From an uncultured Gammaproteobacteria bacterium (GTDB lineage Bacteria > Pseudomonadota > Gammaproteobacteria > UBA6002): a DNA stretch of 64,000 bases. Positions 33,951 through 43,735 of the stretch are shown in pieces. Made by a program: the position numbers and the translations under genes. Numbering within the stretch: the first letter of the stretch is position 1; each line of letters starts with the position of its first letter. The notes under the pieces were generated by a model, which saw only the letters and a program-made list of their open reading frames with translations, was not told the origin of the DNA and ran no database searches. The stretch is taken from NCBI GenBank assembly GCA_963705725.1, contig CAVPKM010000017.1, positions 1 to 64,000 of the forward strand. The letters run 5' to 3'.

Positions 33951-36455
33951 ATGTTAAAAGATAACGTAGAAACCTTGCAACTTGCTATCAATACTGGAAT
34001 TACCTATCTTCAAAATAAAAACTATGAGACAGCGATTGCCACATTTAATCTGATTCTAGCTGAAGATCAGCATTCCGCCTTGGTTTTTTATTGTCGTGCT
34101 GAAGCCTATTATCATATAGGAAAGCATGCCGAAGCGATTCAAGATTTCCGTCAAGCTGAAAAGCTTGGGTATAAAATAACTAATTATCTATGCAGCGAAT
34201 CTTATGCGCAGCTAGGTAATTATAGCGGTGCAATCAAAAAAGCTATCGCTGTGATGATTAGTAGCGATGAAGAGCAACGCTGCCCTAATGTTGCAGAAAT
34301 TTGTTTGTCAAAAATAAAAAGAGGAGAATTAGATTCAATCTCTCGCAATCATCTTTTAAGATTTATTATTTCCATGCTACCTCAGGATAGATCACTTTAT
34401 TTTTTAAAAAAAATTATTGCTATGGGTCCTGGATCAGCATTAGGCGCTCGCTTTTGGAAACCTGAAAAATTTAGCTCCCCGAATATAGAAGAAGGGATAT
34501 TAAAAAAAATTTGTGAGCATCTGCAACTAGCAGATGGTACATTTGTTAAACCTTCAATTGATGAACTTCACTTATTTGATAAGCTTGCCAACATACCAGA
34601 CCCTATTCAACAACTTCGTTACTACATTTGTTATAAAAAAAATACACAGCAAGATTATAGCGAGGCCGAACAAGAATTATTGAATTACTATTCATCCATC
34701 CCAGAAGAGGGGGGATTTGCTTATCGATTCGATCACATCACGAGATATATCCAAGATTTTCTTTATCTTCATATCCCTATTGCTGAAAATTTTGTTGAGC
34801 TTGCTATTGAAGAAATACTAAGGAACTCAGAAAATTTAACTCATCCAGAATTTGATCCAATGCACCTTACCAATCTCGCATGGATTTTATTTCGACAGAC
34901 AAGTTATTTTTCAAAAGCTTATAGAATTCATGTCAGTATTAATGCTAACAATAAAGCAGCTTATTCTAAAATTTGGAATAAATGTAAGGAGAGGGAAAAA
35001 AGGTATCGTAATGTTACTAACTATAAATTTGAAAGTGAAGATCCAATAGAACAACTACGTTATTTACTTTGCCTTAAAAAAAATAACGAAGAAAATTATG
35101 ATGAAGAGCTACTAAAATTATCTGATTATTATCGAACAGCAGGTGTTATTTATGAACCTGAGTATGTCGATAGATATGCAGAAGATTTTCTTTATCTCGG
35201 CGTTTCTGCTGCAGAGAACTTTATTAAACTCGCGATAGAAAAAACTTTATCAATCTCAGAAGATTTATGTACTGTACAATATCCTATTCCTATCATTCCT
35301 CAGAGGTGGATTAAATTTCAAAGAACCAGTTTATTGTCAAGGGATTGCAAAATATTGATCTCAATTGACCAAAATAATGTTGTCATCTATGAGAATATTT
35401 GGAGTGAGTGTTACGCAAACAAAGATAAACATCGTAATGTTACTCATTATCAATTTAAAGCCAGTGACGAGAGAGAGCAGCTTCGGTTTTCTCTTTGTCT
35501 GAAAAAATATAATCAAGAGAACTATGAAGAAGAGGTTAGAAAGTTATCTGATTATTACACAAGAGAAGATTTTATTTATCAACCTGAACATGCCGATAAA
35601 TATTTAGAAGATTTTCTCTATCTTGATATTTGCGCTGCAGAAAATGCAACTCGATTGGCTACTGAAAAAAAAGTAAAGAATATAAAAAATCTCAAATATG
35701 ACGATTTTCATTCTCATGCATTCTATGAGCGATGGATTGAATTTCAAACCGATTTTTTTGCTGATGATTGCAAAATTTTTACCACTGCTCACGCAGAAAA
35801 TTATCAGGTTTATCAAAAAATTTTTGATGAATGCAAAGAAAAGGAATTGCAACGGCGTAATGTTAGTAATCGTAACTTTTATGCTAAAGATCCAATGGAT
35901 CAACTTCGTTATTCTCTTGGTGTGAAAAAAAATGATCAAAAAGATTATCAAGCAGAAATTGAAGAATTATCTCTATACTACTTACTGTCACCGGAAGAAG
36001 GAGGCTTTGCTTATCAATCTCAACATAAGGATAAATATGTGACAGACTTTCTTTATCTCGATATTTCTGCTGCAGAAAGCTTCGTCCGGCTAGCTCTCGA
36101 AAATGATTTTAATCACCCATTTGTTTCATCGACACCCTATCCATACTCGTCGGATTATATAATTGAGTTACGGGGCGGAATTTTTTCAGATGATTGTAAA
36201 ATATATAACCTCCCTTTTCATAAAAATAATCACCAAACTTTCAATGAAATCTGGCGAGAATGCTTAGAAAATAAAAAGTTGCTTGATAAAAAAGATGAAA
36301 CAGCAGCTCATTCGTCGGCTCCATTTTCTAGAGAAAATCATTCATCTGTGGCTTATGCAAGTCAATCTTTAACGGAACTTTTTAAGGAGCAAAATACTAT
36401 TCAACCTCGAAATGAAGAAAATCAGGGTTTTTTTCAAAATTTTTTTAATATCTAA
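33951..36455 (+). CDS. TPR protein with four tandem ~143-aa repeats, candidate effector
   Basis: N-terminal TPRs; repeats begin DP..QLRY..C.KK at 34599, 35040, 35466 and 35889. Confidence 0.8.
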   Translation: MLKDNVETLQLAINTGITYLQNKNYETAIATFNLILAEDQHSALVFYCRAEAYYHIGKHAEAIQDFRQAEKLGYKITNYLCSESYAQLGNYSGAIKKAIAVMISSDEEQRCPNVAEICLSKIKRGELDSISRNHLLRFIISMLPQDRSLYFLKKIIAMGPGSALGARFWKPEKFSSPNIEEGILKKICEHLQLADGTFVKPSIDELHLFDKLANIPDPIQQLRYYICYKKNTQQDYSEAEQELLNYYSSIPEEGGFAYRFDHITRYIQDFLYLHIPIAENFVELAIEEILRNSENLTHPEFDPMHLTNLAWILFRQTSYFSKAYRIHVSINANNKAAYSKIWNKCKEREKRYRNVTNYKFESEDPIEQLRYLLCLKKNNEENYDEELLKLSDYYRTAGVIYEPEYVDRYAEDFLYLGVSAAENFIKLAIEKTLSISEDLCTVQYPIPIIPQRWIKFQRTSLLSRDCKILISIDQNNVVIYENIWSECYANKDKHRNVTHYQFKASDEREQLRFSLCLKKYNQENYEEEVRKLSDYYTREDFIYQPEHADKYLEDFLYLDICAAENATRLATEKKVKNIKNLKYDDFHSHAFYERWIEFQTDFFADDCKIFTTAHAENYQVYQKIFDECKEKELQRRNVSNRNFYAKDPMDQLRYSLGVKKNDQKDYQAEIEELSLYYLLSPEEGGFAYQSQHKDKYVTDFLYLDISAAESFVRLALENDFNHPFVSSTPYPYSSDYIIELRGGIFSDDCKIYNLPFHKNNHQTFNEIWRECLENKKLLDKKDETAAHSSAPFSRENHSSVAYASQSLTELFKEQNTIQPRNEENQGFFQNFFNI

Positions 36456-36504
36456 AATTGCCTCTTGCTAAAGAATAAAGGTGAGTGCTTTAAAAAACAC
36501 GGTG

Positions 36505-36532
36505 TTGCTTACCATATAAGTGGAGGTACAAT
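36505..36532 (+). promoter_or_regulatory. Sigma70-like promoter of the rpn unit (repeated at 38060 and 39614)
   Basis: TTGCTT-N16-TACAAT. Confidence 0.55.
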
Positions 36533-36580
36533 AATAAGTTCAATTACCTATTTGTTATAAGAAGAAATAAAATGTCAGTC

Positions 36581-36751
36581 GTACTATTCAGCACAATGCT
36601 AGAAGTCGCTAAACGTTCAGATTTTAGCCAGATTCGGACAAACAATTTAATTAAAAAGCGGAGCATACTGAAGTATGTGAGCAGTTTTAATTAAATTTTT
36701 TGTTCGAAGATGGCAAAATATGGACGTCTCAACCCTGTGCTGAATAGCTAA
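36581..36751 (-). mobile_element. GTAAC-family MITE (reverse) in the rpn1 leader
   Basis: Reverse complement of the 21303 element; ends TGTGCTGAATAGCTAA, overlapping the rpn ATG. Confidence 0.92.
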
Positions 36752-37719
36752 TGGCAATTAAGGATGCAATTGAACTTAACCCTACCTCAAAAATTAATCA
36801 ACCACATGATAAACTACTCAAGCGACTCCTCTCCAATATTGTCACAACTCGTGAAATTCTTGAAGCTTACTTACCTCAAGAGGTAAAAAATCTCGTTGAC
36901 TTGAAGCACTTAGAGCGACAATCAGATTCTTTCGTTGATGCCGAACATCGCTTCCTAGAAGTCGACATTTTGTTTAAAACCCGTTGTAAATTAACGCAGG
37001 AAGATTGTCATATCTGGGTCCTCATCGAGCAGCAAAGACAGCCCGATGCCTGGATGCCGCTTCGTTTATTTTGTTACCTGGGGGTGATCTGGGATCATGT
37101 ACGAAAAGCTTCAAAAACTCGGGGCAAATCTGCCAAAATTCCTTTTGTTTATCCCTTGGTGATTTCTAATGCCTCGAGGCCATATCGGCATTCGTTAACC
37201 CTTCGAGATATGGTAGAGCCTGAAGCTGCCAAGCCATTGTTTGATAAATTATTTAATTCTCCGACCCAGCTGATTGATTTAGCTGCGCTACCTGATGAAG
37301 CGCTAAGGGTTCAGCTTCAGGGAGGCATCCAAGCGCTAGTATTATTACTAAGCTTGAAACATATTTATGACAAAAACTTATCAGATTATTTAGAATCCGA
37401 CTTAGTTGTCTTGCTTCAAGCATTAGAAGAACAGGGTTATAGAGATGAGGTAGTAGATTTGTTATATTACCTCTATTCTGAGGGAAATTTAAGCCATTCA
37501 TCTAAGTTTTGGCCATTTTTACACCGAAAGTTTTCAAAAGAAGTAGAGGAGGAAGTCATGACTTTGAGGCAACAAGATATACAGCAAGGCGCGCAAAAAG
37601 CCTTACAAGAAACCGCATTACGAATGCTGCAAAGTAAACAGTTTGAAATAGAAACTATCGCTAAAATAACTCAATTATCAATAGCTGAAATTGAGTCTCT
37701 GGCGAAGAAAGAAAATTAA
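36751..37719 (+). CDS. Rpn-family recombination-promoting nuclease (YhgA-like / Transposase_31), copy 1
   Basis: PHDKLLK, SFVD, VDILFK, VLIEQQ..PD.WMPLRL..Y, and EVMTL...IAKITQLSIAEI tail. Confidence 0.92.
   Translation: MAIKDAIELNPTSKINQPHDKLLKRLLSNIVTTREILEAYLPQEVKNLVDLKHLERQSDSFVDAEHRFLEVDILFKTRCKLTQEDCHIWVLIEQQRQPDAWMPLRLFCYLGVIWDHVRKASKTRGKSAKIPFVYPLVISNASRPYRHSLTLRDMVEPEAAKPLFDKLFNSPTQLIDLAALPDEALRVQLQGGIQALVLLLSLKHIYDKNLSDYLESDLVVLLQALEEQGYRDEVVDLLYYLYSEGNLSHSSKFWPFLHRKFSKEVEEEVMTLRQQDIQQGAQKALQETALRMLQSKQFEIETIAKITQLSIAEIESLAKKEN
37558..37719 (+). CDS. Internal in-frame RpnS-type small protein (53 aa); also 39112-39273 and 40666-40947
   Basis: Strong SD GAGGAGG followed by aagtc-ATG at the conserved internal Met, as in RpnL/RpnS systems. 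Confidence 0.7.
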   Translation: MTLRQQDIQQGAQKALQETALRMLQSKQFEIETIAKITQLSIAEIESLAKKEN

Positions 37720-37755
37720 TTGCTATTGATGGCACAAACTCTCGAAATGGATATC

Positions 37756-37927
37756 GTAACTATTCAGCACAGGGTTGAAACGTCCATATTTTGCCATCTT
37801 CGAACAAAAAATTTAATTAAAACTGCTTACATACTTCAGTATTGCTCCGCTATTAATTAAATTTTTTGTCCGAATCTAGCTAAAATCTGAACGTTTAGCA
37901 ACTTCAAGCATTTGTGCTGAACAGTAC
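37756..37927 (+). mobile_element. GTAAC-family MITE with 8-bp target duplication
   Basis: Flanked by TGGATATC at 37748-37755 and 37928-37935. Confidence 0.94.
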
Positions 37928-38134
37928 TGGATATCTTCTTAGCCATTGAAATTAGTTGAAGAATGCAAAGCCATTTTTCGACATTTAAATGGGGTTAACG
38001 TAGATACTATTTTAAATATGAACAAAGCTAAAAATATATCGATCTACAAAAACACGGGGTTGCTTACCATATAAGTGGAGGTACAATAATAAGTTCAATT
38101 ACCTATTTGTTATAAGAAGAAATAAATGTCAGTC

Positions 38135-38305
38135 ATACTATTCAGCACAATGCTAGAAGTCGCTAAACGTTCAGATTTTAGCCAGATTCGGACAAACAAT
38201 TTAATTAAAAAGCGGAGCATACTGAAGTATGTGAGCAGTTTTAATTAAATTTTTTGTTCGAAGATGGCAAAATATGGACGTCTCAACCCTGTGCTGAATA
38301 GCTAA
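38135..38305 (-). mobile_element. GTAAC-family MITE (reverse) in the rpn2 leader
   Basis: Copy of 36581-36751. Confidence 0.92.
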
Positions 38306-39273
38306 TGGCAATTAAGGATGCAATTGAACTTAACCCTACCTCAAAAATTAATCAACCACATGATAAACTACTCAAGCGACTCCTCTCCAATATTGTCACA
38401 ACTCGTGAAATTCTTGAAGCTTACTTACCTCAAGAGGTAAAAAATCTCGTTGACTTGAAGCACTTAGAGCGACAATCAGATTCTTTCGTTGATGCCGAAC
38501 ATCGCTTCCTAGAAGTCGACATTTTGTTTAAAACCCGTTGTAAATTAACGCAGGAAGATTGTCATATCTGGGTCCTCATCGAGCAGCAAAGACAGCCCGA
38601 TGCCTGGATGCCGCTTCGTTTATTTTGTTACCTGGGGGTGATCTGGGATCATGTACGAAAAGCTTCAAAAACTCGGGGCAAATCTGCCAAAATTCCTTTT
38701 GTTTATCCCTTGGTGATTTCTAATGCCTCGAGGCCATATCGGCATTCGTTAACCCTTCGAGATATGGTAGAGCCTGAAGCTGCCAAGCCATTGTTTGATA
38801 AATTATTCAATTCTCCAACCCAGCTGATTGATTTAGCTGCGCTACCTGATGAAGCGCTAAGGGTTCAGCTTCAGGGAGGCATCCAAGCGCTAGTATTATT
38901 ACTAAGCTTGAAACATATTTATGACAAAAACTTATCAGATTATTTAGAATCCGACTTAGTTGTCTTGCTTCAAGCATTAGAAGAACAGGGTTATAGAGAT
39001 GAGGTAGTAGATTTGTTATATTACCTCTATTCTGAGGGAAATTTAAGCCATTCATCTAAGTTTTGGCCATTTTTACACCGAAAGTTTTCAAAAGAAGTAG
39101 AGGAGGAAGTCATGACTTTGAGGCAACAAGATATACAGCAAGGCGCGCAAAAAGCCTTACAAGAAACCGCATTACGAATGCTGCAAAGTAAACAGTTTGA
39201 AATAGAAACTATCGCTAAAATAACTCAATTATCAATAGCTGAAATTGAGTCTCTGGCGAAGAAAGAAAATTAA
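38305..39273 (+). CDS. Rpn-family nuclease, copy 2
   Basis: Protein identical to copy 1; two synonymous differences seen (TTC/TTT and CCA/CCG, ~38808-38817). Confidence 0.92.
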   Translation: MAIKDAIELNPTSKINQPHDKLLKRLLSNIVTTREILEAYLPQEVKNLVDLKHLERQSDSFVDAEHRFLEVDILFKTRCKLTQEDCHIWVLIEQQRQPDAWMPLRLFCYLGVIWDHVRKASKTRGKSAKIPFVYPLVISNASRPYRHSLTLRDMVEPEAAKPLFDKLFNSPTQLIDLAALPDEALRVQLQGGIQALVLLLSLKHIYDKNLSDYLESDLVVLLQALEEQGYRDEVVDLLYYLYSEGNLSHSSKFWPFLHRKFSKEVEEEVMTLRQQDIQQGAQKALQETALRMLQSKQFEIETIAKITQLSIAEIESLAKKEN

Positions 39274-39309
39274 TTGCTATTGATGGCACAAACTCTCGAA
39301 ATGGATATC

Positions 39310-39481
39310 GTAACTATTCAGCACAGGGTTGAAACGTCCATATTTTGCCATCTTCGAACAAAAAATTTAATTAAAACTGCTTACATACTTCAGTATTGCT
39401 CCGCTATTAATTAAATTTTTTGTCCGAATCTAGCTAAAATCTGAACGTTTAGCAACTTCAAGCATTTGTGCTGAACAGTAC
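39310..39481 (+). mobile_element. GTAAC-family MITE (duplicated with the unit)
   Basis: Same sequence and TGGATATC flanks as 37756-37927. Confidence 0.94.
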
Positions 39482-39688
39482 TGGATATCTTCTTAGCCAT
39501 TGAAATTAGTTGAAGAATGCAAAGCCATTTTTCGACATTTAAATGGGGTTAACGTAGATACTATTTTAAATATGAACAAAGCTAAAAATATATCGATCTA
39601 CAAAAACACGGGGTTGCTTACCATATAAGTGGAGGTACAATAATAAGTTCAATTACCTATTTGTTATAAGAAGAAATAAATGTCAGTC

Positions 39689-39859
39689 ATACTATTCAGC
39701 ACAATGCTAGAAGTCGCTAAACGTTCAGATTTTAGCCAGATTCGGACAAACAATTTAATTAAAAAGCGGAGCATGCTGAAGTATGTGAGCAGTTTTAATT
39801 AAATTTTTTGTTCGAAGATGGCAAAATATGGACGTCTCAACCCTGTGCTGAATAGCTAA
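39689..39859 (-). mobile_element. GTAAC-family MITE (reverse) in the rpn3 leader
   Basis: Copy of 36581-36751. Confidence 0.92.
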
Positions 39860-40947
39860 TGGCAATTAAGGATGCAATTGAACTTAACCCTACCTCAAAA
39901 ATTAATCAACCGCATGATAAACTACTCAAGCGACTCCTCTCCAATATTGTCACAACTCGTGAAATTCTTGAAGCTTACTTACCTGAAGAGGTAAAAAATT
40001 TCGTTGACTTGAATCACTTAGAGCGACAATCAGATTCTTTTGTCGATGCCGAACATCGCTTCCTAGAAGTCGACATTTTGTTTAAAACCCGTTGTAAATT
40101 AACGCAGGAAGATTGTCATATCTGGGTCCTCATCGAGCAGCAAAGACAGCCCGATGCCTGGATGCCGCTTCGTTTATTTTGTTACCTGGGGGTGATCTGG
40201 GATCATGTACGAAAAGCTTCAAAAACTCGGGGCAAATCTGCCAAAATTCCTTTTGTTTATCCCTTGGTGATTTCTAATGCCTCGAGGCCATATCGGCATT
40301 CGTTAACCCTTCGAGATATGGTAGAGCCTGAAGCTGCCAAGCCATTGTTTGATAAATTATTTAATTCTCCGACCCAGCTGATTGATTTAGCTGCCTTACC
40401 TGATGAAGCGCTAAGGGTTCAGCTTCAGGGAGGCATTCAAGCGCTAGTGTTACTACTAAGCTTGAAGCATATTTATGACAAAAACTTATCAGATTATTTA
40501 GAATCCGACTTGGTTGTCTTGCTTCAAGCATTAGAAAAACAGGGTTATAGAGATGAGGTAGTAGATTTGTTATATTATCTCTATTCTGAGGGAAATTTAA
40601 GCCATTCATCTAAATTTTGGCCATTTTTACACCGAAAGTTTTCAAAAGAAGTAGAGGAGGAAGTCATGACTTTGAGGCAACAAGATATACAGCAAGGGGA
40701 ACAGCGAGGGTGGGAACAAGGGCTACAGCAAGGGCTGGAACAAGGAGAACAGAAGGGGTTAACACGAGGGTTAGAACAAGGGGAACAGAAGGGGTTAACA
40801 CGAGGGTTACAGCAAGGCACGCAAAAAGCCTTACAAGAAACCGCATTACGAATGCTGCAAAGTAAACAGTTTGAAATAGAAACTATCGCTAAAATAACTC
40901 AATTATCAATAGCTGAAATTGAGTCTCTGGCGAAGAAAGAAAATTAA
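39859..40947 (+). CDS. Rpn-family nuclease, copy 3, with expanded tail
   Basis: A few substitutions versus copies 1-2 plus 40 extra aa of Gxxx tetrad repeats. Confidence 0.92.
   Translation: MAIKDAIELNPTSKINQPHDKLLKRLLSNIVTTREILEAYLPEEVKNFVDLNHLERQSDSFVDAEHRFLEVDILFKTRCKLTQEDCHIWVLIEQQRQPDAWMPLRLFCYLGVIWDHVRKASKTRGKSAKIPFVYPLVISNASRPYRHSLTLRDMVEPEAAKPLFDKLFNSPTQLIDLAALPDEALRVQLQGGIQALVLLLSLKHIYDKNLSDYLESDLVVLLQALEKQGYRDEVVDLLYYLYSEGNLSHSSKFWPFLHRKFSKEVEEEVMTLRQQDIQQGEQRGWEQGLQQGLEQGEQKGLTRGLEQGEQKGLTRGLQQGTQKALQETALRMLQSKQFEIETIAKITQLSIAEIESLAKKEN
40690..40817 (+). repeat. 12-nt coding tandem repeat (GEQR/GWEQ/GLQQ/GLEQ/GEQK/GLTR)
   Basis: Includes a near-exact 36-nt duplication GAACAAGGrGAACAGAAGGGGTTAACACGAGGGTTA. 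Confidence 0.9.
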
Positions 40948-40953
40948 TCTATT

Positions 40954-41049
40954 GCAACTTTAGCAGGGTCCATATATGAGCAGTTTTCAGCGGGTTTTTC
41001 GCTAAAAATGGCCAAATATGGACGTTTCCTTCCTGGGGCGAGTAGTTAC
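40954..41049 (-). mobile_element. Half-length sister-subfamily MITE remnant
   Basis: GAGCAGTTTTCAGCGGGTTTTTCGCTAAAAATGGCCAAATATGGACGTTTC...GAGTAGTTAC aligns to the reverse of the MITE left arm. Confidence 0.65.
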
Positions 41050-41073: not shown

Positions 41074-43735
41074 TCACCAGGAGGATGTCAAATTATTATT
41101 TTCAGCTTGAGGATCAAATGTAGTGGTTTTTGATCTTTTAGGAGGCGGTGTGTCTGTGTTATCTCCGTCTCTAGGGTGAAATTTTTTAAAAAAGTTACTT
41201 TCTGTAGAAACAGCTTTCTCATCATTAAGTAACTGACGGACTGAATTAAATCTTTCCTGGTTAAGTTGAGGAATATATTTTATACAATCCTCAGTTTGTT
41301 TTTTATAAACGACACTTGGAATAATTTTCTTACAGCGACGAATAATAGTTTTTGCCTTAATAATATCATCATCATTATTGGATTGAACAAGTGTTGAGAT
41401 TGCAAAAAATAAAAAACTAGAGCGAGTACATAGGGATGGCCTCCCTGGAAGCGGGCTCGAAAGTTGCTGAGAATAAAAGCAACGTTTTTATCATATAATG
41501 AAATAATTACGTTATCCCAATTATTATGTTGGGCGTTTTTAAATAAATCATTTGTTAATTTCCGTGACTTATCAACAAAGTCAAATTGATTAATTTTAAT
41601 CGAAGGTGAGATAGAGTGGCCATACAATAATAATAGTTTCACGATCTCTCTCTGTTCTAACACAACCGCATAACAAAGAGCATCCATATAGATATCATCA
41701 ACTTGAAAAGGTTTATTTGGTGCATTGCATCCAGTATCAAGTAAAAATTTGCAAGCCTCATAGGACTTGGCTTTGATAGTCGTCATGATAAGATGGGGGG
41801 ATAAAGTTCTAGGATTTGCCCTCATTTTTAATAATAATTGCGCTAAATCAAGATTACCATTTATTACAGCGAGAGCTAAAGGAGAGAGTTGATTATTATT
41901 ATGCTGATTAATATCTAATTTAGCGTCAAGTAGTAAGTGAATGAAATCTGAGCTTGTGTTATTTGGAAGCGCATGAAATAAGTTGCCTCCATGAGGAAGT
42001 GGTAGAGTAACATTGGCGCCTTCATTTATTAGTAATGCTGAAATTTCAAAACAGCCACTTGCTACTAAAATTGATAGTAGCGTTTTGCCACGCGAGATTT
42101 GAGGCGCAGTAAAGGAGGGAAAAATAGTCTGCCCATCGAAAGTGTAATTGGGATTAATCAAATTATTTTGGATTAATCTTTTTGCGAGAGTTAAAAATTT
42201 ATTCGTCACTAGAAAATCGATACATTGCTGATGAAGAGCTTCTGGGTCCTCCTGCAAACAACTTAAATCCGCTCCCAATTCAATAAATTTTTCAGCTAAA
42301 TCAAGGCGCCTCCTGAAAAAAGCATGACTCAATGGCGTTCGGCCGTCCCAGATTGTCTCCTCATCGTTCTCGTTGATATTTAATCCTTTGTCTAAAAGAT
42401 ATTCGATAAAATCCTGAGATTGATGATTGGACAAAAGAAAAAGTACATTGTTGGAACCCGTACCCAAATCAGCGCCATTTTCAATCAATAATTTACAAAG
42501 GTCGTTATATTCTACATTAGAGATAGCATTTGATAAGGGGGTTTCATTATTATCGTCTATTTGATTAATATTCAAACTCTGCCCAACAAGATATTGGATA
42601 AATGAATTGGGGTGTTTGGGGGCAGTATATGAAATAAGTTTTGACCGCTAGGAAGTGCTGAAAAAATATCAGCCCCTTGATAAATTAATAATAGGGCAAT
42701 CTCGAAGCAGCCTTTTTCTATTGAAATTGAGAGTAAGGTTTGCTGAAAATATTCGTGCGTAGCATTATCATTGCAAATATAATTAGGATTAATTAGGTCG
42801 TTTTCAACTAATATTTTTGGGAGACGATAGAATTTTCTATCCAAACAATCGATGAAATGTCTAAAAATTTGTTCTTTAGGAAATTGGTCCAAGCAAGTTA
42901 AATCTGCTGCTAAATCAATAAATTTTTCAGCCAAACTATATTGATGATTGTTAAGAGCTGTTATTAACGGCGTTTGATTATCGTTGTTTTTCTGATTAAG
43001 ATTTAAACCTTTATCTAAAAGATATTTTATAAAATCTAAAGACGTATCATCTTTCAATGAGTGAAATAGATTATTATTTTCACGGAGAATAGTGAGATCT
43101 GCGCCATTTTCGATCAATAATTTTTTTAAATTTTCATTACCATAATATAAAGGAGTAAAGCCTTGCTTATCCTCATGATTAATAGTTAAGCCGTGCTCAT
43201 TGAGATATTTAATAAATGAATCAGGTGTATTAGCTGGCAATACGTGAAATAGGTTTTGATCAAATTTTTTCCTATTATAACAATTCGCTCCATTTTTAAT
43301 TAGCAATTTTGCCAAATCGAATTTACTTCTTCTAACAGCGTGAAATAAAGGGGTTTTGCCTGAAGAATTCTCATTTTCGATCCAGAGGCCCAGCCTCAGT
43401 AGAAATTGAATAAATTCATTTGATGTTTCATTTGGTAACAGGTGGAGCAAGGTGTTGCCTTTTGGCGTAGGTTTTAAAATATTTGCACCGTTTTCTATTA
43501 AGATTTTTGCAGCGGTGAAGTAACCATTTCTAATGGCAAATACTAAACGCGGTAATTTGCCCACGCGATTCTAGCACGCTAATTAAATTAGATGGCGTAT
43601 TGTCAGGTAAGAGATGAAATATATTTTCACCATTGGGATAGAGGGGGAAAACTGCTTTGTTCTTAGTAATTAACTTTATGGCCAATTCAAAATCTCAAGA
43701 GCCGTGACTAAGGTATTTTTTGTATCGCCAAGCAT
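41074..43735 (-). CDS. Ankyrin-repeat protein, candidate effector (multiple frameshifts; pseudogene or assembly errors)
   Basis: Many TPL..A/LIENGAD ankyrin repeats in ORFs 42572-43564 and 41280-42575; ATG 43735 after GAGG; C-terminal pieces continue in other frames to TGA 41074. Confidence 0.8.

Follow-up and report, generated by a model that had tools for sequence, protein, structure and literature searches.

The 64,000-nt window analysed in this work (positions 1-64000 of contig C17, from the 1.58-Mb genome of an uncultured gammaproteobacterium with 39% G+C, 20 contigs, and 92% completeness) carries a tandem array of rpn genes, each of them preceded by a long hairpin element. We consider it probable that this locus is a 2.7-unit array of an RpnL/RpnS-type gene, encoding a PD-(D/E)XK nuclease, which grew by ordinary recombination, and that the hairpins are independently inserted miniature transposable elements with inverted repeats (MITEs) hitchhiking with the gene. 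Three head-to-tail units were located between 36493 and ~40957, each comprising a 79-bp leader, a 168-bp hairpin MITE that ends one base before the ATG, and an rpn open reading frame (ORF). Two sets of direct repeats with 99-100% identity (36493/38048/39602, spacing 1555 and 1554; 36570/38124/39678, spacing 1554 and 1554) bear out the 1554/1555-bp period on which an initial annotation of this DNA had placed three such units. The homology of unit 3 to the other two stops ~10 nt past its stop codon.

In addition to the array, tblastn revealed three further rpn copies outside the window, namely c4 (C17:147842-148917), which is full length and frameshifted near codon 52, c5 (C13:143945-142953), which is intact and encodes 330 aa with two of the repeats described below, and c6 (C13:140040-139402), which is truncated at its 5' end. 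The leader of unit 1 (36493..36571, plus strand) is common to all five full-length copies including the dispersed ones, with 96% identity in c4. It is followed by the upstream MITE (36581..36750, plus strand, 168-bp core at 36583-36750), a member of what we call family A, by rpn copy 1 (36751..37719, plus strand), encoding a putative RpnL of 322 aa with a PF04754 domain, by a downstream MITE (37756..37927, minus strand, 172 bp including its termini), and by a spacer (37928..38047, plus strand) that leads to the junction with unit 2 at 38047/38048. Unit 2 (38048..39601, plus strand) repeats this order with a leader, a MITE at 38135-38304, an rpn ORF at 38305-39273 whose protein is identical to that of copy 1, a minus-strand MITE at 39310-39481, and a spacer. 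The truncated unit 3 (39602..40957, plus strand) consists of a leader, a MITE at 39689-39858, and an rpn ORF at 39859-40947 (362 aa); it has no downstream family-A MITE, and the sister-family remnant that had been annotated there proved to be a half element (40972..41049, minus strand) cut at the palindrome centre, 25 nt past the stop of copy 3. At 40948-40972 the homology of unit 3 ends, 15 nt follow, and the sister MITE then sets in from its palindrome centre, the breakpoint coinciding with the hairpin tip.

Copies 1 and 2 are bracketed by inverted MITEs of ~170 bp, as had been annotated. The arms (36595-36750 / 37757-37912, and likewise 38149-38304 / 39311-39466) are 90% complementary over 156 nt without gaps and 93% over 172 nt if gaps are allowed, and contain a perfect run of 48 bp. 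Each of the rpn-flanking MITEs also folds as a hairpin by itself. A promoter had moreover been placed outside the MITEs. A candidate, TTGCTT-16-TACAAT, can indeed be read by eye in the leader (36505-36532, plus strand, 8/12 consensus positions), whereas the consensus scan does not list it.

The assignment to the Rpn/YhgA family follows from several lines of comparison. Both protein forms match PF04754 (Transposase_31) with E values of 2e-36 and 4e-36 (125.8 and 124.9 bits vs a cut-off of 21) and the TIGR01784 subfamily model with 52.3 and 59.9 bits (cut-off 52.1); the cut-off of the NCBIfam RpnA equivalog NF007361 is not reached (76.6 vs 583 bits). The array protein is thus a member of the Rpn family, not an RpnA ortholog. 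BLASTP against RpnA of E. coli K-12 (E 3e-23, 27% identity) aligned D20, D72, E93, Q95, and R105 with D11, D63, E82, Q84, and R94 of RpnA, residues whose mutation abolishes or alters activity according to the passages of Kingston et al. (2017) that deal with them. An alignment with 22 database homologs shows no variation at D72, E93, Q95, and R105 and a conservation of at least 90% at D20, and the nearest named Rpn homolog comes from a metagenome-assembled genome of Legionella sp. An AlphaFold model computed from the alignment (pLDDT 76.5) places C-terminal helices at 263-294, 300-307, and 311-321, and the crystal structure of RpnA-S (7TH0; 7th0_A) superposes on residues 270-316 of the model with Z 5.6, an rmsd of 1.5 Å over 46/46 residues, and 30% identity, the small size of the domain accounting for the modest Z value (rank 50 in the list). 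A single-sequence model of the 53-aa product introduced below, which came out as one continuous helix, was discarded.

With phmmer, the array protein hit only a TetR chain among the PDB sequences (E 0.8), and Foldseek against the PDB returned nothing at E <= 0.001, the best matches being PD-(D/E)XK nucleases of the MspJI and Cap4 type (E 0.018-0.1). None of the PADLOC models matched the Rpn proteins, and the family may just be missing from that 2023 library. Within codons 1-269, the nuclease domain, the nonsynonymous:synonymous differences amount to 4:12 between units 1 and 3, 3:11 between unit 1 and c5, and 1:11 between unit 3 and c5, corresponding to omega values of 0.03-0.09 among the three MITE-bearing lineages. 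The domain thus appears to be under purifying selection, which counts against silencing by the MITE.

Besides the full-length protein, the gene probably gives rise to the C-terminal domain on its own, by initiation at an internal start, and this product would be the antitoxin. Met270 aligns with M244 of RpnA in BLASTP, and M244 was identified by mutation as the internal start of the antitoxin RpnA-S in the pertinent text of Zhong et al. (2023, PMC10400941). In copy 1 the candidate RpnS of 53 aa (37546..37719 including its ribosome-binding site (RBS), plus strand) has GAGGAGG at 37546-37552, a 5-nt spacer, and the ATG of M270 at 37558. A Met residue at position 270 is at least 90% conserved in 24 homologs, and a Shine-Dalgarno-like context before the internal Met was seen in three of six metagenomic relatives and not found in the other three. 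The best promoter-like site of the region, ATGACA-18-TAGAAT (37367..37396, plus strand, 10/12), lies 162 nt upstream of the internal ATG and recurs in the other two copies at 38921 and 40475; the 20 promoter-like sites of the region as a whole are not clearly above the 13.3 (standard deviation 4.0) obtained in shuffles.

The initial annotation had credited copy 3 with a different tail. What distinguishes it from copies 1 and 2 is in fact a 120-nt in-frame insertion of ten 12-nt repeats (40688..40807, plus strand), which encodes EQRG WEQG LQQG LEQG EQKG LTRG LEQG EQKG LTRG LQQG, while the last 42 residues are shared except for one A-to-T change. These repeats begin after residue 11 of the candidate RpnS, and the number of extra four-residue repeats is 0 in units 1 and 2, 2 in c5, 9 in c4, and 10 in unit 3, with homologs varying at the same place. 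In the portion of Zhong et al. (2023, PMC10400941) devoted to them, four-residue repeats start 8-20 residues past the RpnS Met, vary between strains, and set the pairing of RpnS and RpnL in neutralisation. The paralogs with 0, 2, and 10 repeats probably represent separate RpnL:RpnS specificity classes. Taken together, PF04754, the catalytic residues, the correspondence of M270 with M244, and the superposition with 7TH0 lend support to the view that the rpn genes carry every mark of the toxin plus intragenic-antitoxin type that can be read at the sequence level, as the initial annotation had proposed.

The hairpin elements, for their part, are MITEs of a dispersed family with a length of 168-172 bp and 8-bp target duplications. 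BLAST located family A, whose termini read GTAAC...GTTAC, at 44 loci of the genome, 26 of them full length at 160-172 bp, and at 62 loci if the sister family is included. Ten of the 18 full-length copies with both ends defined are flanked by 8/8 target-site duplications and 2 more by 7/8 ones, compared with 0/306 and 14/306, respectively, in mismatched control pairs that combine the left flank of one copy with the right flank of another. An empty site for a sister MITE was also found at 148948-149274 of C17. The Rfam plant miRNA hairpin MIR6274 scored 31-42 bits, below its gathering threshold of 80, and we read these sub-threshold matches as generic long hairpins. No pair of MITE termini encloses a transposase-like ORF in the 92%-complete assembly, in which an autonomous insertion sequence (IS) with these termini was looked for; the longer pairs of termini enclose housekeeping genes. 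Within the genus, related elements occur in the genomes G004 (13 matches, 70-77% identity) and G001 (fragments), and neither the MITE consensus pattern in a genome-contig collection nor the MITE-ATG junction in a metagenome-contig collection gave any match (0 in both).

Brackets formed by such elements are not peculiar to rpn. A class I fructose-bisphosphate aldolase gene (C13:207152-208165) lies between inverted family-A MITEs at 206937-207105 (minus strand) and 208249-208418 (plus strand), and a gene resembling methionine aminopeptidase is bracketed by one full and one partial MITE. Judged from crude ORF calls, 5/21 non-rpn full-length MITEs have a predicted start codon no more than 30 nt away, and for most of them the distance to a gene end is 0-80 nt. 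The aldolase bracket and the MITEs near other gene ends thus imply that the inverted-pair arrangement is not special to rpn. The repeat on either side of the left aldolase MITE, GATAATAATTTTTT, measures at least 14 bp and is longer than the usual 8 bp.

Comparison of the rpn junctions allowed the two insertions to be told apart. In c4 the leader runs straight into ATGGCAATT with no MITE between them, whereas units 1-3 and c5 show the leader, ATGTCAGTC, the MITE, and then ATGGCAATT, which implies that the upstream MITE would have been inserted at the start codon with a target duplication spanning the ATG. The downstream MITE starts 37 nt past the rpn stop, possesses its own perfect 8-bp duplication TGGATATC (37748-37755 and 37928-37935), and is absent from c5; at the equivalent position c6 continues without a break and resembles an empty site. 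Moreover, the outer flanks of the MITE pair differ, with ATGTCAGT... on the left and TGGATATC on the right. The c4 empty site, the presence of only the upstream MITE in c5, and the 8/8 duplication of the downstream element show the two rpn MITEs to be, as far as such junctions can tell, independent insertions that were later copied along with the gene. The same three observations run counter to the packaging of the gene between paired MITEs that had been suggested for this locus, and the inverted orientation of the pair is a one-in-two outcome of two independent insertions. We surmise that a MITE-less gene resembling c4 came first, that the upstream MITE then landed at the start codon in an ancestor common to units 1-3 and c5, and that rpn copies dispersed thereafter; the downstream MITE would have landed 37 nt past the stop in the array lineage only, before amplification of the array copied both MITEs with the gene.

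The growth of the array can be followed in its alleles. Unit 2 shares the alleles of unit 3 at 36503, 36569, and 36581, and the states at 36569 and 36581 are shared derived ones, because the outgroups c5 and c4 agree with unit 1. From 36667 on, it carries the alleles of unit 1 at 18/20 single-base sites and no 120-nt insertion, the sites 37254 and 37263 being private to unit 2 and synonymous, and over 1554 bp units 1 and 2 differ at only 5 positions. Since it joins unit 3 leader alleles to unit 1 alleles further downstream, unit 2 is a recombinant, and the exchange interval (36581-36667, 86 bp) lies inside the upstream MITE. A two-copy array of one unit-1 type and one unit-3 type may have been expanded to three copies by unequal crossover or conversion inside the upstream MITE, with unit 2 being the product of a unit 3 leader that paired with a unit 1 leader on the sister chromosome. 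The mosaic supports the view that the array has changed its copy number by homologous recombination at least once, and supplies direct historical evidence for the accordion-type amplification envisaged by the initial annotation. Gene amplification by unequal crossing-over between direct repeats belongs to general bacterial genetics, and unit 2, being likewise a recombinant of units 3 and 1, shows nothing unusual in this respect; the array grew by homologous recombination of the ordinary kind, in which the MITE merely formed a portion of the homologous tract. Tandem direct duplication with varying unit ends is also how rpn arrays arise according to the relevant section of Zhong et al. (2023, PMC10400941), and the unit ends vary among all six copies here.

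We were also curious to know whether other rpn genes carry such elements. PF04754 genes are present in 7/41 related genomes and, within the genus, only in G002. Of the 19 rpn loci of these relatives, none matched the present MITE families, none was bracketed by an inverted repeat (with the array stretch as positive control), and none had a MITE-size hairpin within 300 bp, where only two hairpins of 22-26 nt were seen. The six metagenomic loci of the same Rpn clade contained none of these MITEs either, and no hairpin within 300 bp except a 20-nt one located 77 nt downstream. Related rpn genes with the same MITE flanks, which the initial annotation had led us to look for, thus amount to 0/19 and 0/6. 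A search for related loci in the genome-contig collection gave three distant Clostridia loci with 29-36% identity, and none of the publications among the matches listed in a literature search combining MITE and Rpn concerned MITEs at rpn genes. One rpn ORF of G002 is disrupted near codon 52-56 (G002:C43, ~120501-120678) by a palindromic MITE of 180 nt that belongs to a different, abundant family; this family gives 105 BLAST matches in that genome, many of which are 80-nt half elements.

Several points weigh against an array in which the MITEs are mere passengers. MITE-like insertions are enriched ~10-fold beside rpn, with 4 events in 1465 bp of unique non-coding rpn flank vs 0.41 expected from the remaining non-coding DNA of the genome (Poisson p = 8e-4). 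The events counted are the two MITEs of the array, upstream and downstream of rpn, the half element of the sister family that follows copy 3, and the sister MITE located upstream of c4; the test is post hoc, with a crude coding mask, small numbers, and arguable independence of the events. This density above the genome-wide level agrees with what had been supposed at the outset, and pure chance explains it poorly. The sole MITE-less full-length copy, c4, is the frameshifted one, and a pseudogene at this place would fit a protective role of the MITE, a point that hangs on one base in one assembly. Besides, the MITE differs at 1/168 positions between paralogs whose synonymous divergence is 6-7%, which fits either gene conversion, as the differences are clustered, or constraint on the MITE. 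Because of this clustering, some of the synonymous differences in the nuclease domain may in turn have been imported by conversion from MITE-less copies, which would weaken the claim of selection after the insertion. Finally, it is the c4 empty site that carries the upstream insertion, since the match of its flanking 8-mers (6/8) lies within the range of the controls, 71/306 of which reach 6/8. For the enrichment, the simplest reading is that dispensable, recently duplicated DNA tolerates insertions that are purged from the tight intergenic regions between housekeeping genes; the genome is 87% coding, and this reading fits with the MITE of G002 sitting inside an rpn ORF.

The most probable of the alternatives is one in which the MITEs are RNA-level regulators of the toxin. 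RpnL would be attenuated, or the mRNA made accessible to RNase III, through a 5' hairpin and upstream ORF (uORF) or through a duplex of ~165 bp that joins the 5' and 3' MITEs of one transcript, whereas RpnS with its own internal promoter and RBS would be unaffected, and this bias would make a toxic gene tolerable and amplifiable. We regard this as unlikely. The insertion puts 179 nt between the native leader and the rpn ATG, and a uORF of 40 codons (36572..36694, plus strand, repeated at 38126 and 39680) now begins at the native ATG that was duplicated (36572), enters the MITE, and ends inside it in a frame other than that of rpn. The upstream MITE would lengthen the 5' untranslated region (UTR) by ~177-179 nt and turn the native start into a uORF, and it may lower the translation of RpnL relative to RpnS. 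The rpn ATG stands without a Shine-Dalgarno sequence at the foot of the hairpin, but the native start has no strong Shine-Dalgarno sequence either, and the consensus scan found no promoter-like site inside the MITE facing rpn. RNA folding yielded -66.5 kcal/mol for the upstream MITE hairpin, -47.3 kcal/mol for the other MITE, and -246.7 kcal/mol for the inter-MITE duplex within one transcript, which is far more stable than both hairpins together; we infer that the local hairpins would form first during transcription. A precedent exists in the Correia elements, which can bind RNase III and control adjacent genes as described in the text of PMC2649163 drawn on here, and the enrichment of MITEs in the rpn flanks, their near-invariance among paralogs, and the frameshift of the sole MITE-less copy point in the same direction. 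However, MITEs lie equally close to the starts of housekeeping genes (the 5/21 copies mentioned above), the arrangement is absent at 25 other rpn loci, c5 is intact with an upstream MITE only, and the frameshift of c4 comes down to a single base in one assembly.

A related thought is that rpn genes and hairpin MITEs have a real affinity for each other, either because the MITE in the 5' UTR, with its hairpin and uORF and possibly by pairing with the 3' MITE, is a selected attenuator that keeps RpnL below RpnS and thereby allows a toxic nuclease gene to be retained and amplified, or because MITE hairpins suffer breaks, which Rpn itself might produce or exploit, and these seed rpn duplications. 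What favours it is that the centre of a half MITE marks the end of copy 3 and that the crossover of unit 2 falls in a MITE, together with the 10-fold enrichment and the MITE inside an rpn ORF of the sister species, yet we find it quite improbable.

Far less likely than these is an invertible switch as proposed in the initial annotation, in which the inverted MITEs would recombine with each other, reverse rpn with respect to its promoter, and thereby turn the toxin off or on. The arms (156-172 nt, 90-93% identity) would be suitable, as a perfect run of 48 bp is long enough for homologous recombination under RecA requirements. However, 0/4 MITE-bearing copies are inverted relative to the leader, and a scan of 16 neighbouring ORFs (25.9-53.5 kb; six further ones of at least 110 aa in 24-52 kb lay outside it) yielded no site-specific recombinase. 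Furthermore, the arms come from independent insertions, the aldolase gene has the same bracket, and a flip would cut RpnS off from read-through but not from its internal promoter, which leaves the benefit unclear.

That the three copies are an assembly artefact of a repeated region is likewise very doubtful. The few differences between units 1 and 2 would be compatible with it, and a public soil-metagenome run, in which 0.29 of the sampled words occurred, yielded 7 contigs of 151-308 nt with a depth of 2-4.7, none of which bridges a unit or a MITE-gene junction. By contrast, the three units carry distinct and phylogenetically coherent combinations of alleles, unit 3 has the 120-nt insertion and a different right flank, and tens of kb of contig sequence adjoin the array in either direction.

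Hardly credible, in our view, is Rpn as the mobilising enzyme, be it in an autonomous MITE-rpn-MITE element or by moving MITEs in a RAYT/REP-like manner: a 'putative transposase' gene does lie between inverted repeats and the genome shows no autonomous IS with these termini, but each MITE is complete with its own flanks, the two outer flanks of the MITE pair are dissimilar, the duplicated rpn unit has different ends in the six copies, G004 (97% complete) has its 13 MITE matches without PF04754 while G002 has 17 PF04754 matches without a MITE of this family, and terminal inverted repeats with an 8-bp duplication are a hallmark of DDE transposases. Nor was evidence of Rpn transposition found by Zhong et al., according to the relevant text of PMC10400941.

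On one side, the array is neighboured by hflX, purA, rnr, and a gene for a tetratricopeptide repeat (TPR) protein, and on the other side by genes for ankyrin proteins and queC; ffh and corC are found close to c5 and c6, while c4 has a TENA-family gene on one side and mfd on the other, and all three rpn loci sit among housekeeping genes. No defence genes were recognised around the three loci, and the ankyrin neighbours of the array had PADLOC matches to repeat-containing models only. Direct repeats bounding the main array or the c5/c6 locus were looked for, and none was found. c4, in contrast, lies between two copies of a direct repeat of ~330 bp (C17:147223-147728 and 148948-149274, 92-97% identical), which, judging from the ORF coordinates, duplicates the convergent 3' ends of the TENA-family ORF (ending at 147333) and mfd (ending at 149067) together with the spacer between them. 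The left copy holds a sister-family MITE at 147392-147568 with the 8-bp duplication TTTTATTT, and the right copy represents the empty site. The surroundings of c4 look like a long target duplication, or like a Campbell-type or partial tandem event around an rpn unit.

Several neighbouring genes are themselves repetitive. The 834-aa protein encoded upstream of the array (33951-36455) has an N-terminal TPR region and, by eye, ~4 internal repeats of ~140 aa; on the DNA level, 35048-35244 and 35474-35670 are 73% identical, and the repeat part matched no family. Downstream, at 41280-43685 (minus strand), three consecutive ankyrin-repeat ORFs (431, 330, and 51 aa) overlap by 4 and 35 nt and may be one larger gene broken by frameshifts or a cluster of paralogs with internal direct repeats. 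Between c6 and c5, C13:142018-142744 is a tandem repeat with a period of ~146 bp and 5 copies of 83-92% identity, which is contained in an ORF of 285 aa whose match to Cor1 is weak and below the cut-off.

The locus is of use in several ways. One genome that contains the same toxin gene with and without a MITE between leader and start is a small natural experiment, and its three intact repeat-number variants (0, 2, and 10) could serve for studies of RpnL:RpnS orthogonality. If the MITE damps the translation of RpnL, a genome would have simple means of tolerating and amplifying a toxic defence gene, and a toxin-antitoxin case would be added to the few bacterial MITEs whose regulatory effect has been demonstrated. 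Should the MITE enrichment at rpn be borne out by further genomes, it would be relevant to the way in which rpn genes duplicate and move.

Compared with known mobile elements, family A resembles, by description only, QMITE2 of Coxiella burnetii, a hairpin MITE of 150-190 bp with terminal repeats and 7-11-nt direct repeats, which, in the account of Wachter et al. (2018, PMC5896051) as far as it is used here, occupies intergenic and 3' UTR sites, often abutting or overlapping gene ends, with ~50 copies per genome. Size, termini, direct repeats, positions at gene ends, and copy number are alike. Unlike QMITE2 as portrayed in those passages, family A has no known GTAG REP core or IS1111 targeting, and its host is uncultured. 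The Correia repeat-enclosed elements of Neisseria, which can be co-transcribed, bind RNase III, and alter the expression of adjacent genes according to the same text of PMC2649163, are similarly small inverted-repeat elements next to genes; they belong to a different family, and family A differs from them, as they are characterised there, in its 8-bp target duplication and in that no outward promoter-like site was found in the MITE.

The closest parallel to the genes themselves is provided by the RpnL/RpnS systems, represented by RpnA-E and RpnP2 of E. coli in the cited portion of Zhong et al. (2023, PMC10400941). As in the systems outlined there, the array encodes a PF04754 nuclease with the catalytic residues of RpnA and an internal RBS and Met at the position of M244, a predicted three-helix C-terminal domain that matches 7TH0, and four-residue repeats that start 11 residues past this Met and vary in number (0, 2, 9, and 10). 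It is likewise a tandem array formed by direct duplication, with variable unit ends and a gene that has no inverted termini or target duplication of its own. It departs from RpnA in its low identity (27%) and in its score far below the equivalog cut-off, and from the RpnL/RpnS systems in that its loci are situated among housekeeping genes rather than in a defence island and in that a MITE splits the native leader from the start. The RpnL/RpnS gene, the variation of its four-residue repeats, and the tandem array by duplication are thus already known, and what is added here, as a modest curiosity, is a MITE inserted exactly at the start codon of a toxin gene whose empty site has been kept in a paralog.

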